Of a DNA stretch of 64,000 nt, positions 28,144 to 32,811 are shown one piece after another. The stretch lies in the sequence record LC620505.1. The stretch is one strand, 5' to 3'. Positions within the stretch are counted from its first letter, which is position 1. The number at the start of each line of letters is the position of its first letter. Source of the DNA: Escherichia phage NiC89. The notes under the pieces were generated by a model that was given only the letters and a program-made list of their open reading frames with translations, made no database searches and had not been told where the DNA came from. The translations under genes and the position numbers were made by a program.

Positions 28144-28344
28144 ATGGTACAAAAATTAATGGCACTTGTTAATGCCATAAAAGGTAATAAAAAACGTATA
28201 GCTTTTACTATTTCTGCTATGGTAGGAATTTTACTCTGGAACTTTATTCTATCACCTATTGCAATTGCACATGGTATTAATATTCCAGTAGTTACTCTTG
28301 ATACATTTGTAGATTTAGCATTTGCTTTAGTTGGGTTAATTTAA
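28144..28344 (+). CDS. Candidate small membrane protein, 66 aa, convergent with gene 61
   Basis: TAAGGAGG then ATG; two hydrophobic segments; occupies the 56-61 interval where T4 carries 69/dam. Could be a chance ORF in AT-rich DNA. Confidence 0.3.
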   Translation: MVQKLMALVNAIKGNKKRIAFTISAMVGILLWNFILSPIAIAHGINIPVVTLDTFVDLAFALVGLI

Positions 28345-29369
28345 ATCTTAGCATATTTAGATAACCGCATTTTAGCCATCAACCCCTGGGCAATATTATT
28401 TTTCATATATTCCATAATTTGTTCAGGGGTTGCACCTTCCTTTCTAATCATATCATTAACATCTTTTGATTTCCAGGGAGATTTATCCCAAAACATAACC
28501 CTTTCTCCTGCATCAACTAATTTAGTCATTCGCTTGATAGTGTCAGGGTGACGAGGTTCATTATCTAAGACCCACACTCGTCTATCTTTAAATGGAACAA
28601 CTTCTAGGTCTAATTGACCACCCGTAATAGCTATACCATTTTCAATAAAAAGTGAATCTATAGGTCCTTCTAGAACATATACATCGCCATCTTTAACTCG
28701 TTCAACACCGTAAATTTTTGTTGCCTCAGGATAAGCTTTAATGGTGATATATTTTTGAGGAGCATCTTTCTTTAATGCACGTCCTTGAAAAGACTCAGCC
28801 TTTCCGTTAGCATTATAAATTGGAATAACAAGACGAGGCTCAGGTATTTCCTTTTTATATGTTCCCGGTACTATGCTATTAACCAATTTAGGCCATTCGG
28901 TTGTAAACCAAAGATATTTCCATTTATCCTTTGGAATACAACGAGCTTTTACATATTTTATAATTGGATGGTCTTCCGCCAGTTTATCTAATCTAACACA
29001 TGACGGAAGAGATTTAATTATTTTCTTCTCAGGTTGTTTAGGAAGTTCTTTAGGTTTTTCTACTGGACGACTTTTACCTTTTTCTTTTCTTATTTCAAAG
29101 ATATACTCACGATATAAATCAGGTTCAAACTCCTTTAAATATATTCCTATTGGTGCATGATAGTTACAGTTATAACAGTGAATATTTCCTTCATTATTAT
29201 CACCATAATACCATCCACGAGCTTTATTCTGGTCGGTTTTTGAATCTCCACAAACAGGGCATCTAAACCGCAATTTAAAAGTTGAACTATTATTTACTTG
29301 TGTGAATTTAGGTAAATGAGCTAATGCACGGTATGCAAACTCATTATCAATCCAAGGTATTGATGACAT
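28341..29369 (-). CDS. 61: DNA primase gp61
   Basis: 342 aa, same length as T4 gp61; N-terminal zinc ribbon CPVCGDS...CYNC. Confidence 0.9.
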   Translation of the reverse strand: MSSIPWIDNEFAYRALAHLPKFTQVNNSSTFKLRFRCPVCGDSKTDQNKARGWYYGDNNEGNIHCYNCNYHAPIGIYLKEFEPDLYREYIFEIRKEKGKSRPVEKPKELPKQPEKKIIKSLPSCVRLDKLAEDHPIIKYVKARCIPKDKWKYLWFTTEWPKLVNSIVPGTYKKEIPEPRLVIPIYNANGKAESFQGRALKKDAPQKYITIKAYPEATKIYGVERVKDGDVYVLEGPIDSLFIENGIAITGGQLDLEVVPFKDRRVWVLDNEPRHPDTIKRMTKLVDAGERVMFWDKSPWKSKDVNDMIRKEGATPEQIMEYMKNNIAQGLMAKMRLSKYAKI

Positions 29370-29371
29370 TT

Positions 29372-29536
29372 TTACTCTTCTTTTTCTTTAGATTCCTCTT
29401 TTTTCTTTTTAGGAATCTGTTCAGGACCTTTATTTACTACAGCGCCTGATGTTGTTCCAGTAGAGATATTTTCAGGACTACCACCTGAATCTCCAGCAAC
29501 CATATCTTCTTTGATAAATTCTTTATATGTTTTCAT
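29372..29536 (-). CDS. Hypothetical protein, 54 aa, Lys/Glu-rich tail (not in ORF track)
   Basis: Hand-translated MKTYKEFIKEDMVAGDSGGSPENISTGTTSGAVVNKGPEQIPKKKKEESKEKEE. Confidence 0.4.
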   Translation of the reverse strand: MKTYKEFIKEDMVAGDSGGSPENISTGTTSGAVVNKGPEQIPKKKKEESKEKEE

Positions 29537-29580
29537 ATTAACCTCTATTCATAAAAGCATTAAAAATTTGGTCATCAATC
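29535..29580 (-). repeat. Direct repeat copy A (~46 bp) spanning the 3' end of the 118-aa gene
   Basis: 43/46 identical to 29891-29936. Confidence 0.7.
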
Positions 29581-29894
29581 GATGGAATAGCAACTTTTTC
29601 TGCATCATTTAGCAAATCATTAATTTCATCAGATAGCATAACACATGTATCTTTATTTCCTGTAATTGTTACTGCGCAATTACGAACATTTTCTTTATTA
29701 AATTTTAGGTTAATATTTTCGTAATGAAAATCCTTTAATGCTGAATATATTTTTAAAATAAAATTGTCTTTTACTACAATAAACCCAACCTCACTATTAA
29801 AACGTGGCTCATGGAAACTGTAATAAACCTTTTCATCTATAAAATCGTATGAAATTTTTTCCATTTTTAAATATGAAAATTCAGAACTATACAT
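29538..29894 (-). CDS. Hypothetical protein, 118 aa; single-domain paralogue of the 213-aa neighbour
   Basis: Shares FIVVKDN core and identical C-terminal SIDDQIFNAFMN(R/K)G with 29896..30537. Confidence 0.6.
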   Translation of the reverse strand: MYSSEFSYLKMEKISYDFIDEKVYYSFHEPRFNSEVGFIVVKDNFILKIYSALKDFHYENINLKFNKENVRNCAVTITGNKDTCVMLSDEINDLLNDAEKVAIPSIDDQIFNAFMNRG

Positions 29895-29936
29895 ATTAAC
29901 CTTTATTCATAAAAGCATTAAAAATTTGATCGTCAA
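29891..29936 (-). repeat. Direct repeat copy B (~46 bp) spanning the 3' end of the 213-aa gene
   Basis: 43/46 identical to 29535-29580. Confidence 0.7.
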
Positions 29937-30537
29937 TAGAAACTTTTACTTTAGGCTGTTCTTCAAACGGTAATTCATATCCACATATTACAATTTTGTG
30001 ATCGATACCAAAATACACAGAAGCAATATGATTAATATTATTTTCAGTGAAATCTAAATCAACATCAATATCTTTTTGACCACAGCCCAAAGGATAAATA
30101 ATGCGAGTAATTCGATTATCTTTAACAAATATTCCACCGACATACTCTGTGCTGCGTTTAAAGTCTACACGCCGACGAAATGAAAAATATTCAGGCTCTC
30201 TATGAGCTCGGCTCATAGGACACAACGAGTAACTAGAATAAGAGATGTCAAATCCTACGCCTTCAATATGAGCCAACGTGTCATGATTAAACCAATTATA
30301 ATCGTACGCCAAGTCCATTAGATTATAATATGTAAAAGGCACCGGATTAACATCATATGTTGTACCTTTAAAATCTGCCCAGGCAACGATTTCATTATCT
30401 TTAACAATTACAAAAATTGTGCCAATAAGATATCCACGGTTATTTTCATCAGGCGTTATATTATAACATTGTGCATCAGGAAATTTACCGTATTTAAACG
30501 GTGGATTTTTGTGCATATAATAAATCATATTATTCAC
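29896..30537 (-). CDS. Hypothetical protein, 213 aa, two tandem KDN-motif domains (61.2-like by position)
   Basis: Internal duplication: IFVIVKDNEIV and GGIFVKDNRITRIIY. Confidence 0.6.
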   Translation of the reverse strand: MNNMIYYMHKNPPFKYGKFPDAQCYNITPDENNRGYLIGTIFVIVKDNEIVAWADFKGTTYDVNPVPFTYYNLMDLAYDYNWFNHDTLAHIEGVGFDISYSSYSLCPMSRAHREPEYFSFRRRVDFKRSTEYVGGIFVKDNRITRIIYPLGCGQKDIDVDLDFTENNINHIASVYFGIDHKIVICGYELPFEEQPKVKVSIDDQIFNAFMNKG

Positions 30538-30823
30538 CTGTGATTTCGGTTACGATATTTTTGTTATTAAAGTTTTTATCGCAATACAGAACATAATTAT
30601 ACTGCATTACACCACCAGACTTAAGCTGTTTTTGTACTTCAGCTTTCATTTCAGGACGATCGCGCTCAACGATATTCATAATATCCGCTTCAATTTGAGT
30701 TTCAACTTCAGTCTGATCCGCAGTCATAGACCATTCACACAAATCTTTATCATAACCTGCCATAGCAGGCTGAGCAGCACAAGAAGCTAAAGCAAAAATT
30801 GTAGCAAAAATAAATTTTTTCAT
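30530..30823 (-). CDS. sp: Spackle (Sp) periplasmic protein, superinfection exclusion
   Basis: 97 aa, same length as T4 Sp; cleavable signal peptide; position between 61.x genes and dmd. Confidence 0.7.
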   Translation of the reverse strand: MKKFIFATIFALASCAAQPAMAGYDKDLCEWSMTADQTEVETQIEADIMNIVERDRPEMKAEVQKQLKSGGVMQYNYVLYCDKNFNNKNIVTEITGE

Positions 30824-30883: not shown

Positions 30884-31141
30884 TTATTTTAAAACTTCTG
30901 CATAATCACATGTTACAAACTGTTTCTCTAACTTAACGATCTTACGAAAATATCTTTTGCATTGACGAATCTGCCTCTTCGTAGGACGTACAGCAAACTT
31001 AATAAATTCCACTCGACCAAATGGAGGACTTTCTTCTGCTGGAATATCTAGCACCAATTCCCATGTATCTGCAATAAGTGCTTTGAATTGCGTATTTTTC
31101 CTGACGTTATATGGAGTAGGTTTAAATAAAACAATATGCAT
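30884..31141 (-). CDS. Basic 85-aa protein (61.4 position; possibly the ToxN-inhibitor TifA)
   Basis: Highly basic; immediately downstream of dmd. The TifA assignment is from my recollection that tifA lies beside dmd, not from sequence recognition. Confidence 0.4.
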   Translation of the reverse strand: MHIVLFKPTPYNVRKNTQFKALIADTWELVLDIPAEESPPFGRVEFIKFAVRPTKRQIRQCKRYFRKIVKLEKQFVTCDYAEVLK

Positions 31142-31142
31142 A

Positions 31143-31325
31143 TTATCCTCGGCAATCTACTTCACATACTTTCTTGTCATCAATGAAAGCTTTAACTAAT
31201 GCTTTATTAACTTCAGCATATTGAGTAGTAGCCCATTGAACGTCATCTTTCATCATTGTGGTTTCTTTAGTAAACATGCTTTCATTCTTAAACCACCCCA
31301 TAAAAACTACCTTTACCAATTCCAT
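31143..31325 (-). CDS. dmd: Dmd, antitoxin against RnlA/LsoA
   Basis: 60 aa; sequence MELVKVVFMGWFKNESMFTKETT... consistent with T4 Dmd; adjacent to gene 41. Confidence 0.8.
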   Translation of the reverse strand: MELVKVVFMGWFKNESMFTKETTMMKDDVQWATTQYAEVNKALVKAFIDDKKVCEVDCRG

Positions 31326-31354: not shown

Positions 31355-31384
31355 ACTATACCATAGTCTTGTCAGCTTGTAAAC
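31355..31384 (-). promoter_or_regulatory. T4-type early promoter upstream of dmd
   Basis: GTTTAC (31379-31384), 18-bp spacer, TGGTATAGT. Confidence 0.55.
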
Positions 31385-32811
31385 TAAAATTTTAATTCAT
31401 TTGCCAAAGCATCTAACTGAGCTCGAGCTGATTCGTTTCTTTGATAGCGATTCTGTTCAGCCTGAATCTGTTGTGAACCTGCTACTTCACTCACTTCGGT
31501 TGGAGTAGAATCTTGTTCAATTTCTACCCATTTTTGATTTCCTTTTTGAACACCCATCAAAAACTTATTCCACTTATTCTTATCACCATATCGTGATTTG
31601 ATTTGCTTAATGAGTTGTTGTTCAGCAGCTGCTAGCTCCTCGGTTTCAATGACCGCAAGCATAAAATCAGCTGTTGCTGGAAGACCGGCAGATTCTGCAA
31701 TATCGCTCATGTTAACATCGGAAGAGTCCCAAGCTTGTTTACCGACCTGTGCTGCAGTCCAAAGAACAGTTTCGGTTTCAACAGCAAGAGCACGTAATTC
31801 CTCTGCAATAGCTTTAACAGTTGTGTAACTATTTTCTGAATAAACTCTGATGCGGCAAGATTTACAAATACCTAGATAGTCGACAATAATGATTGTTGGA
31901 ACAAAATTCTTTTTGAGCTTCAATTCATTCAAGAGAGACCTGAATGTATTAGCGTCTGCTCCACCAGTAGGGTACTGTTTAACGATTAAACGACCGAGAG
32001 TAGATTTCTCACGCCATTTTTCCATTTTTCCTTTATACTCGGCATAAGAAATATGTCCATCATCAATGTCATCAAGAGAAACATCGAGCATGTTAGCATC
32101 AATACGTTTAGCACAGACTTCTTCTGCCATTTCCATGGAGATATAAAGAACGTTATGACCAAGCTGCAAATAATCTGCTGCTAATGAACAAAGTCCTAAT
32201 GATTTACCAACGTTAACGCCAGCCATTAAAACGTTCAGTGTTCCAGTCTCAGCTCCGCCTTTAGTAATTTTATTTAGAATTTTGAGTCTAAATGGAACTT
32301 TACGAGCTTTATTCATATAAGATAGCCAACGTGCTTCATAGTCATCCATCCAATCATGGCCAACGTAGCTATCAAATGAAATTGATAATGCCTGGCGCAT
32401 GATGTCAGGAATAGCACCAACATCCGGCATTTTCTTATTTCGTTTTTCCGGAGGAAGCTCAGCATTAGTTTGAATTTCGATTATTTTAGACGTAGCATTA
32501 AACATCGCCCTTTGCTGAACATATTTTTCTGTTTCTTTTACTAACCAGCTGTGGTCTTCTGGAGAATCAGTCAGTTTTGAAATAAGTGTTTTTACACCAG
32601 AATATTCTGTTTCAGTAAATGAACTATTTTCTAATGCAACATTTAACGCATTAATAGATGGAACGCTATGATACTCGTTGACATGAGATTTAATTAATTT
32701 GAATGTATTTTTAGCTGGACCACTTTCAAAATATTCTGAATCCATATATGGCCAAACTTTTGAAAAATAAGCTTGATCAAATATGAGATGAGAAAGAATA
32801 ATTTCTACCAC
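31384..32811 (-). CDS. 41: Replicative DNA helicase gp41 (DnaB-like)
   Basis: 475 aa, same length as T4 gp41; Walker A GVNVGKS. Confidence 0.9.
   Translation of the reverse strand: MVEIILSHLIFDQAYFSKVWPYMDSEYFESGPAKNTFKLIKSHVNEYHSVPSINALNVALENSSFTETEYSGVKTLISKLTDSPEDHSWLVKETEKYVQQRAMFNATSKIIEIQTNAELPPEKRNKKMPDVGAIPDIMRQALSISFDSYVGHDWMDDYEARWLSYMNKARKVPFRLKILNKITKGGAETGTLNVLMAGVNVGKSLGLCSLAADYLQLGHNVLYISMEMAEEVCAKRIDANMLDVSLDDIDDGHISYAEYKGKMEKWREKSTLGRLIVKQYPTGGADANTFRSLLNELKLKKNFVPTIIIVDYLGICKSCRIRVYSENSYTTVKAIAEELRALAVETETVLWTAAQVGKQAWDSSDVNMSDIAESAGLPATADFMLAVIETEELAAAEQQLIKQIKSRYGDKNKWNKFLMGVQKGNQKWVEIEQDSTPTEVSEVAGSQQIQAEQNRYQRNESARAQLDALANELKF

Follow-up and report, generated by a model that had tools for sequence, protein, structure and literature searches.

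An adfA gene and an old single-domain paralogue share an invariant coding tail in the variable slot between sp and 61.1 of a T4-like phage

Introduction

When two adjacent phage genes end in nearly the same DNA sequence, is the repeat the scar of a recent duplication, or has it been kept for other reasons? This question is raised by a locus within a stretch of 64,000 nucleotides (nt) of Escherichia phage NiC89 (record LC620505.1; the whole stretch is referred to as the window). The genes of the locus, all of which are on the minus strand, include adfA (T4 gene 61.2; anti-DarT factor A) and, directly downstream, a gene of about half its size, and both genes end in copies of a direct repeat. While an earlier note on this DNA had proposed a recent duplication by unequal recombination, the analysis presented here leads to a different answer: the locus probably holds an old pair formed by adfA and its paralogue, with the repeat being a frozen coding and coupling element that serves as a recombination joint, and with both proteins acting as toxin inhibitors.

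To our knowledge, few proteins besides AdfA are known to inhibit a DNA ADP-ribosylating toxin, and the structure and binding mode of AdfA have not been described. The small protein blocks the DNA ADP-ribosyltransferase toxin DarT1 by interacting with it (PMC11257639, summarising LeRoux et al. 2022). In two-hybrid experiments, AdfA of phage RB69 showed no association with DarT1, whereas the R164H variant showed strong association; the change also confers neutralisation (PMC11257639). DarT1 binding or rescue from DarTG1 has been published only for RB69 AdfA(R164H) and for ectopically expressed T4 AdfA (PMC11257639).

Results

The larger gene is adfA, and the smaller gene is its single-domain paralogue

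Judged by its sequence, the larger gene (29896..30528, minus strand) is adfA and thus an already known gene. Its product matches the Pfam family AdfA (PF23813) over the full length (profile positions 1-211; E 7.4e-139; 460.5 bits at a cut-off of 27), and in near-identical phage records the gene is named gp61.2 or anti-DarT factor A. Furthermore, its position directly downstream of sp, within the block 41-dmd-61.4-sp-61.2-61.1-61, is the one expected for the AdfA family. The gene had previously been described as an open reading frame (ORF) of 213 amino acids (aa) with a GTG start at 30537. However, translation most likely begins at ATG 30528 and yields 210 aa (MIYYMHKN...), since this is where the Pfam match and all database homologues begin, the ATG is preceded at a distance of 5 nt by AGGTGA, and a start at the GTG would make the gene run into the end of sp.

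AdfA of the window carries a histidine at residue 167 (210-aa numbering; codon 30028..30030, minus strand). This residue aligns with R168 of the 216-aa RB69-type ORF, which is R164 when numbered from the MHKN start used in PMC11257639. The window protein therefore represents the His allele, which has been linked to DarT1 neutralisation (PMC11257639); together with the full-length match, this points to a complete member of the AdfA family with a putative anti-DarT1 role. Natural variation occurs at this position: the window and T4-type alleles have His, some 210-aa alleles have Asn, and Mosigvirus alleles have either Arg or His (loci L018, L023, L027, L020, L021, and L026).

The smaller gene (29538..29894, minus strand; RB32ORF033c; phrog_4122, E 4.7e-72) encodes a half-size paralogue of 118 aa, which comprises one domain resembling the C-terminal domain of AdfA (AdfA-C) and the tail that is discussed below. 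It matches the Pfam AdfA profile with 34.9 bits (cut-off 27), but only at positions 113-211, i.e., the C-terminal domain and the tail, and it aligns to residues 114-213 (numbering of the 213-aa ORF) with 37% identity (BLASTP E 4e-11). A relationship is already noted in the record of phage RB51, where RB32ORF033c is described as 'similar to gp61.2'. Two features of AdfA are missing from the short protein: the two-domain architecture of ~210 aa and the His at the equivalent of residue 164. The latter is replaced in the window by Asn72 (codon 29679..29681, minus strand), which aligns with AdfA His167, while other short paralogues have His (P0005/L018) or Asp (P0024, P0027, and P0029) at this position.

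The direct repeat consists of a coding tail and the junction to the next gene

The direct repeat spans 49 nt, 45 of which are identical (92%; 29534-29582 and 29892-29940). By comparison, no 49-mer match with more than 32 identities arose when the 1.6-kb region was shuffled 60 times. The repeat is essentially the same feature that had been described before as a 43/46 repeat (29535-29580 and 29891-29936). The first copy (29534..29582, minus strand) includes the last 14 codons of the short gene (SIDDQIFNAFMNRG), its TAA stop codon (29538-29540), a Shine-Dalgarno sequence AGAGG (29542-29546), and the ATG of 61.1 (29534-29536). The second copy (29892..29940, minus strand) has the same layout, with the last 14 codons of adfA (SIDDQIFNAFMNKG), TAA (29896-29898), the Shine-Dalgarno sequence AAAGG (29900-29904), and the ATG of the short gene (29892-29894). 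The common C-terminus noted earlier was likewise found, as both proteins end in SIDDQIFNAFMN(R/K)G.

The repeat is, therefore, the coding sequence of an invariant peptide together with the Shine-Dalgarno/stop/start junction to the next gene. Within this junction, AAT AGA/AAA GGT TAA T ATG, the last codons of the tail provide the Shine-Dalgarno sequence (AGAGG/AAAGG), the stop codon, and the start codon for the gene that follows. The same form of junction was found in Tequatrovirus, Mosigvirus, Dhakavirus, and Gaprivervirus, ahead of differing downstream genes.

The 14-residue tail does not vary among any of the relatives found in these four genera and is common to three protein architectures of ~210 aa, 116-125 aa, and 145 aa. 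Alignments A1 and A2 show this, as do the divergent proteins P0024, P0027, and P0029 and the 145-aa family, and such invariance across architectures suggests that the tail contacts something conserved. At the level of DNA, synonymous differences between genera (CAA/CAG, ATT/ATA, GCT/GCA/GCC, and AGA/CGA) indicate that the bases of the tail are not rigidly constrained. Between the two tails of the window, 3 of the 12 same-residue codons that could differ synonymously do so, and the third-position identity at common residues is 9/12 in the tail compared to 12/30 in the gene bodies. This excess may be taken as a weak hint of homogenisation, much of which could be explained by codon bias. The repeat copies would stay similar mainly because the 14-residue peptide is invariant and because the final codons for this peptide double as the ribosome-binding site of the gene that follows.

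No other tail-like peptide is present in any frame of the window. Furthermore, scans for degenerate DNA encoding the tail returned 16 loci from IMG/VR and 11 loci from metagenome contigs, all of which belong to the three known architectures, so that no fourth family emerged from these data. Separately, the AdfA tail was compared with the C-termini of gp43 (SLDFLFG) and gp55 of the window. A reading of the tail as a sliding-clamp-binding peptide was not supported, as the hydrophobic spacing is different and only S-[IL]-D and the terminal Gly are common with the clamp-type ends of the window.

The pair is old and restricted to this phage group

The earlier note read the pair as the product of a recent duplication by unequal recombination. 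Taken further, this proposal makes the 49-nt repeat a fresh scar and has the copy number still changing. The repeat itself is consistent with this proposal, being direct, 92% identical, and located at the equivalent end of both genes, and the gene content of the locus does vary between phages. However, outside of the last 14 codons, adfA and the short gene are identical in only 33% of residues and 43% of bases, compared to 90% of bases in the tail, and even within the tail the 3 synonymous differences mentioned above have already accumulated. Both genes are under purifying selection, with ratios of nonsynonymous to synonymous substitution (dN/dS) of 0.03-0.33. Moreover, the short gene is present in ~290 phage records at an identity of at least 90%, diverged equivalents adjoin a tail-bearing gene in other genera, and more than one copy of either gene was found in no record. 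Recent tandem duplication as the origin of the pair is thereby refuted, and the proposal as a whole, including a fresh scar and ongoing copy-number change, retains very little credibility.

An exhaustive HMMER search of 1.84 billion representative proteins yielded 10 relatives, all from this phage group, and no cellular ancestor was found among the proteins searched. The relatives include the diverged single-domain proteins P0024, P0027, and P0029 (119-125 aa), in which the tail is kept, and most of the diverged relatives score below the threshold of the Pfam AdfA family. A third architecture is represented by a 145-aa protein (phrog_8539), which is encoded directly downstream of sp in Dhakavirus and Gaprivervirus and has the same tail. 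After removal of the tails, it matched the profile of AdfA-C and the short proteins over 94 columns (P 0.002), with His at the critical position, and it came up as a Foldseek neighbour of the model for the short protein (E 5e-4). In both genera, a short paralogue of 116-122 aa often comes next after the 145-aa gene. Tandem pairs of tail-bearing genes thus occupy the same position in Dhakavirus and Gaprivervirus, which argues that the tandem pair is ancient.

The slot varies by presence and absence, and the last tail codons follow the downstream gene

The locus is a variable slot of Tequatrovirus, bordered upstream by sp (spackle; 30530..30823, minus strand; Pfam T4_Spackle, E 3.5e-45) and downstream by gene 61.1 (29372..29536, minus strand; 54 aa; phrog_1823, E 2.4e-33, and annotation of relatives), and in the window it is filled by adfA followed by the old single-domain paralogue. 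A two-gene arrangement fixed in all relatives, which the earlier note had named as evidence that would speak against it, is not what was observed. Instead, four slot contents occur in Tequatrovirus: both genes (~157 records), adfA only (T4 and T6), the short gene only (NBG2, RB14, and T2), and neither gene (Nami and NIC06P2), with all counts being approximate, as the collection contains RefSeq/GenBank duplicates. None of the genomes in the collections showed signs of tandem amplification. The suggested change in copy number therefore stands with respect to gene content, but only as presence or absence, since no genome with multiple copies was found.

The sequence of the tail depends on the gene that comes after it. 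Where adfA precedes the short gene, its product ends in NKG (7/7 sequenced loci), and RB68, UFV05, and CAM-21, which were assigned by protein cluster, also fit this rule. Where 61.1 comes next, the ending is NRG (6/6 adfA loci and 12/12 short-gene loci). The rule holds for the 210-aa as well as the 208-aa (T4-type) adfA alleles, and the 145-aa gene follows it too, ending in MKRD before the short gene and in MNRG before a 73-aa gene. For the NRG-ending 210-aa proteins P0006 and P0017, a location directly before 61.1 was predicted prior to look-up and was confirmed on the contigs in both cases. Furthermore, among genomes with the 210-aa allele (L031 and L032 compared to the window type), neighbouring Asp codons switch together with the K/R codon. 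The K/R codon of the tail thus goes with the downstream gene rather than with the gene it terminates, which implies that the short-gene module of 358 bp is gained and lost through breakpoints that lie inside the tail.

The period of the repeat is 358 bp, and the insertion or deletion corresponds to one period; L029, which has a T4-type adfA and the short gene, is set apart from T4 by the short-gene module. Arrangements with neither gene and those with only the short gene keep TTAGAGGTTA(A/G)TATG directly after the stop codon of sp, matching the last 14 nt of the repeat. Breakpoints within the tail would be expected from homologous recombination, be it between direct repeats or between phages that infect the same cell. 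Unequal recombination, as invoked by the earlier note, is hence the best account of the variation between phages, while it lends no support to a recent origin of the pair.

Alternatively, the repeat could be a mere by-product of the conservation of the tail peptide and the ribosome-binding site, with slot variants arising by whole-segment exchange through the flanking homology of sp and 61.1/61 and without any part played by the repeat. The protein-level invariance of the tail in all relatives fits this explanation, as does a T4-type codon bias that favours the codons used; in addition, the arrangements with only the short gene or neither gene involve no more than ~15 nt of junction similarity, and the T4 adfA-only allele is strongly unlike the window allele in the N-terminal third, which suggests allele replacement by exchange. 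On the other hand, whichever of the two adfA alleles is present, the K/R codon goes with the downstream gene, the joint switch of the Asp codons in L031 and L032 places breakpoints inside the tail, and the same pattern recurs in the Dhakavirus/Gaprivervirus lineage. We therefore regard a purely passive repeat as unlikely, and a repeat that takes part in recombination as the better explanation.

A different kind of deletion was observed in a Mosigvirus-type metagenome contig (L021), in which a 65-aa gene that usually comes after adfA in RB69-type phages is almost wholly deleted. The junction of this deletion is located at an AAATG microhomology, a stop/start site, just downstream of adfA.

Three putative domains share a predicted fold and the VKDN motif

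In the AlphaFold2 model of AdfA, which has a predicted local distance difference test score (pLDDT) of 73, two beta5-alpha domains are joined by a flexible linker to a tail helix at the C-terminus, while the short protein (pLDDT 84; core >90) was modelled as a single beta5-alpha-beta-alpha domain. Both AdfA halves and the short protein are predicted to have the same succession of five strands and a helix, and a further strand comes after the helix in the N-terminal half of AdfA and in the short protein. Both models have a confident core, whereas the linker has a pLDDT of <50 and the tail helix one of ~52-58.

The motif VKDN, present twice in AdfA and once in the short protein, is placed in the hairpin between the third and fourth strand in all three domains. 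In the N-terminal domain of AdfA, it comprises residues 42-45 (30394..30405, minus strand; predicted beta3-beta4 hairpin), and in the C-terminal domain residues 135-138 (30115..30126, minus strand; predicted beta3'-beta4' hairpin). The latter is invariant across AdfA and the short paralogues (alignment A1), and the two AdfA motifs are also visible as a 22-nt DNA repeat (30110-30131 and 30389-30410). A conserved F-T-x-x-N...A..Y stretch opens the helix that bears residue 167.

Direct comparison of the N- and C-terminal halves of AdfA gave a BLASTP E of 0.47 and a Smith-Waterman shuffle p of 0.18, which is not significant, while HHalign reported P 4e-4 with a probability of 35% over 48 columns. 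The three domain copies that had been proposed for the locus thus agree in predicted fold and in the place of the VKDN motif, whereas sequence homology between the AdfA halves is marginal. Three copies of one domain type (two in AdfA and one in the short protein) are therefore likely, though short of proof, with the models supporting them more strongly than the sequence does. Searches for solved structures and informative fold neighbours found none: in a profile search of the PDB, nothing scored below E 0.3, and a Foldseek search of the viral structure library BFVD returned only relatives from Tevenvirinae. NCBIfam has no model for AdfA or the short protein.

The short gene is maintained and may address a different toxin

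The half length of the short gene and its absence from T4 and many other phages could indicate a decaying remnant of adfA that is devoid of its own function. A further observation in line with such decay concerns phage T2 (Escherichia phage T2, PV958097.1; locus L038), in which the short paralogue (964-1320) directly follows sp and adfA is missing. T2 has been described as naturally lacking an adfA homologue (PMC11257639), yet it does carry the short paralogue. Once adfN is deleted, T2 is sensitive to DarTG1 (PMC11257639, section 6). Therefore, the short protein does not neutralise that DarT1 at native levels. A remnant is, nevertheless, highly improbable, given that the ORF is intact in the ~290 records, that dN/dS ratios of 0.03-0.33 reflect purifying selection, that the predicted fold is confident (pLDDT 84 overall and >90 in the core), that diverged orthologues with only 33-47% identity still keep the domain and the tail, and that the gene is translationally coupled on both sides.

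As a functional protein, it would most likely target a DarT variant or another toxin, different from the target of AdfA. For adfA alleles that are inactive in this sense, targeting of other DarT homologues has been suggested by the authors of the T2 and T4 experiments (PMC11257639).

Genomic context and neighbouring genes

The region of the locus is 96-98% identical to many Tequatrovirus (T4-like) phages, with vB_EcoM_SA21RB as the top match. On the minus strand, the order of genes is 41, dmd, 61.4, sp, adfA, short gene, 61.1, and 61. Besides the genes described above, the ORF map and annotated relatives identified the gene 41 helicase (31384-32811), dmd (31143-31325), and the gene 61 primase (28341-29369), and 61.4 (DUF7279; 30884-31141) was assigned by Pfam and annotated relatives, all of them on the minus strand. 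This gene map bears out the location in the sp/61.4/dmd counter-defence neighbourhood that had been noted before. The stop codon of sp lies 1 nt before the ATG of adfA, and no terminator-like sites were found between 29300 and 31500. Together with the spacing of the genes by 1 nt, this suggests that the genes of the locus are co-transcribed and translationally coupled.

Further differences between phages were observed within this block. A 73-aa paralogue of 61.4 (L007, 3722-3943; BLASTP E 3e-13) is encoded downstream of AdfA-type genes in Dhakavirus-like phages, so that a second small family is duplicated around the same slot. Some Tequatrovirus contigs have an extra 84-aa gene without a Pfam match between 61.4 and sp (L031 and L032, 894-1148), the absence of which from the window is another presence/absence difference in the same block. 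Between 41 and dmd, Dhakavirus- and Gaprivervirus-type phages encode an extra protein of ~105-109 aa (L007, 5319-5648; L033, 836-1153; L034, 744-1061), and the window lacks a gene at this position. Mosigvirus (AV113; L006, 585-1052) has no separate 54-aa gene, and the sequence of 61.1 is instead found at the C-terminal end of a 155-aa protein; in agreement with this, 61.1 of the window matches phrog_2086 at positions 109-154 of 156. Finally, between genes 56 and 61, the opposite strand encodes a conserved hydrophobic ORF of 66 aa (RB32ORF030w; 28144-28344, plus strand), the 3' end of which shares 4 nt with the 3' end of gene 61. One related record names it a holin family protein.

Discussion

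Taken together, the 49-nt repeat would best be understood as a selectively frozen element for coding and translational coupling, and not as the scar of a recent duplication. Its two direct copies could provide a joint for homologous recombination, through which the 358-bp short-gene cassette may be lost or inserted without upsetting the expression of 61.1. Each protein would act as a stoichiometric inhibitor, in which a variable beta-sheet/helix domain sets the target specificity, and the flexibly tethered, constant C-terminal helix may contact something conserved, in the toxin or elsewhere. More tentatively, and rather as a working idea than as a probable outcome, the tail DDQIFNAFM(N/K)R(G/D) could be a portable, tethered docking or inhibitory peptide of a Tevenvirinae-restricted inhibitor family with three architectures, the variable domains of which pick the variant of DarT or another toxin, while the tail doubles as a recombination joint for cassette swaps in one expression slot.

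Several points weigh against this interpretation. Third-position identity is only modestly higher in the tail than in the gene bodies, and much of the DNA identity could be due to codon bias. By sequence, the two halves of AdfA are only marginally homologous, the low pLDDT of the tail may come from shallow alignments instead of true flexibility, and the K/R association was obtained from related genomes, which are not independent of each other. Moreover, the short protein does not protect T2 without adfN from the published DarTG1; the same is true for T4 AdfA in T4 lacking adfN.

While adfA itself was already known, the single-domain relatives, the shared tail, and the rule governing the cassette junction are new. 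The adfA family has single-domain members, most of the divergent ones being missed by the Pfam threshold, and the short proteins have retained the domain that contains the published specificity residue. The invariant tethered tail offers a direct handle on the mechanism of AdfA. Furthermore, natural phages fill the slot in at least 4 ways via a recombination joint within coding sequence, which is useful for predicting the counter-defence content and host range of therapeutic T4-like phages. Overall, the finding adds to a known theme without changing it and should be of modest interest to specialists in phage counter-defence.

Among known systems, the closest is the AdfA family itself (Pfam PF23813), with which adfA of the window agrees in position, length, and the His at the R164H site, whereas the short gene departs from it by lacking the N-terminal domain and by having Asn at the critical site. 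AdfN (gp30.3, a NADAR ADP-ribosylglycohydrolase) and AdfB of phage ICP1 are likewise phage counter-defences against DarTG, but neither is related to AdfA in sequence. AdfN is an enzyme that removes the DNA modification, and in T4 and T2 it is AdfN, not AdfA, that carries resistance to the tested DarTG1 (PMC11257639), while AdfB has been described, like AdfA, as a small protein that apparently acts by interacting with the toxin (PMC11257639, PMC11481870).

With respect to the arrangement of the genes, the locus resembles the promoter-early stem-loop (PeSL) cassettes, of T4-type phages, in which small accessory genes of hyperplastic regions are bounded by short conserved sequences that act as joints for the gain, loss, and exchange of genes by recombination (PMC2839356, PMC4122927). 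It differs from them in that the joint is a coding tail with a Shine-Dalgarno/stop/start junction, without terminator-like sites and with genes spaced by 1 nt, and not an intergenic promoter-terminator element. Finally, the segmental amplification of tifA in evolved T4 (bioRxiv 10.1101/2022.04.14.488369) is a precedent for adaptive copy-number change and is comparable in that recombination alters the copy number of a gene directed against a toxin-antitoxin system. The tifA copies, however, are identical, recent, and arose under laboratory selection, whereas the copies described here are old and diverged and vary only in their presence or absence.

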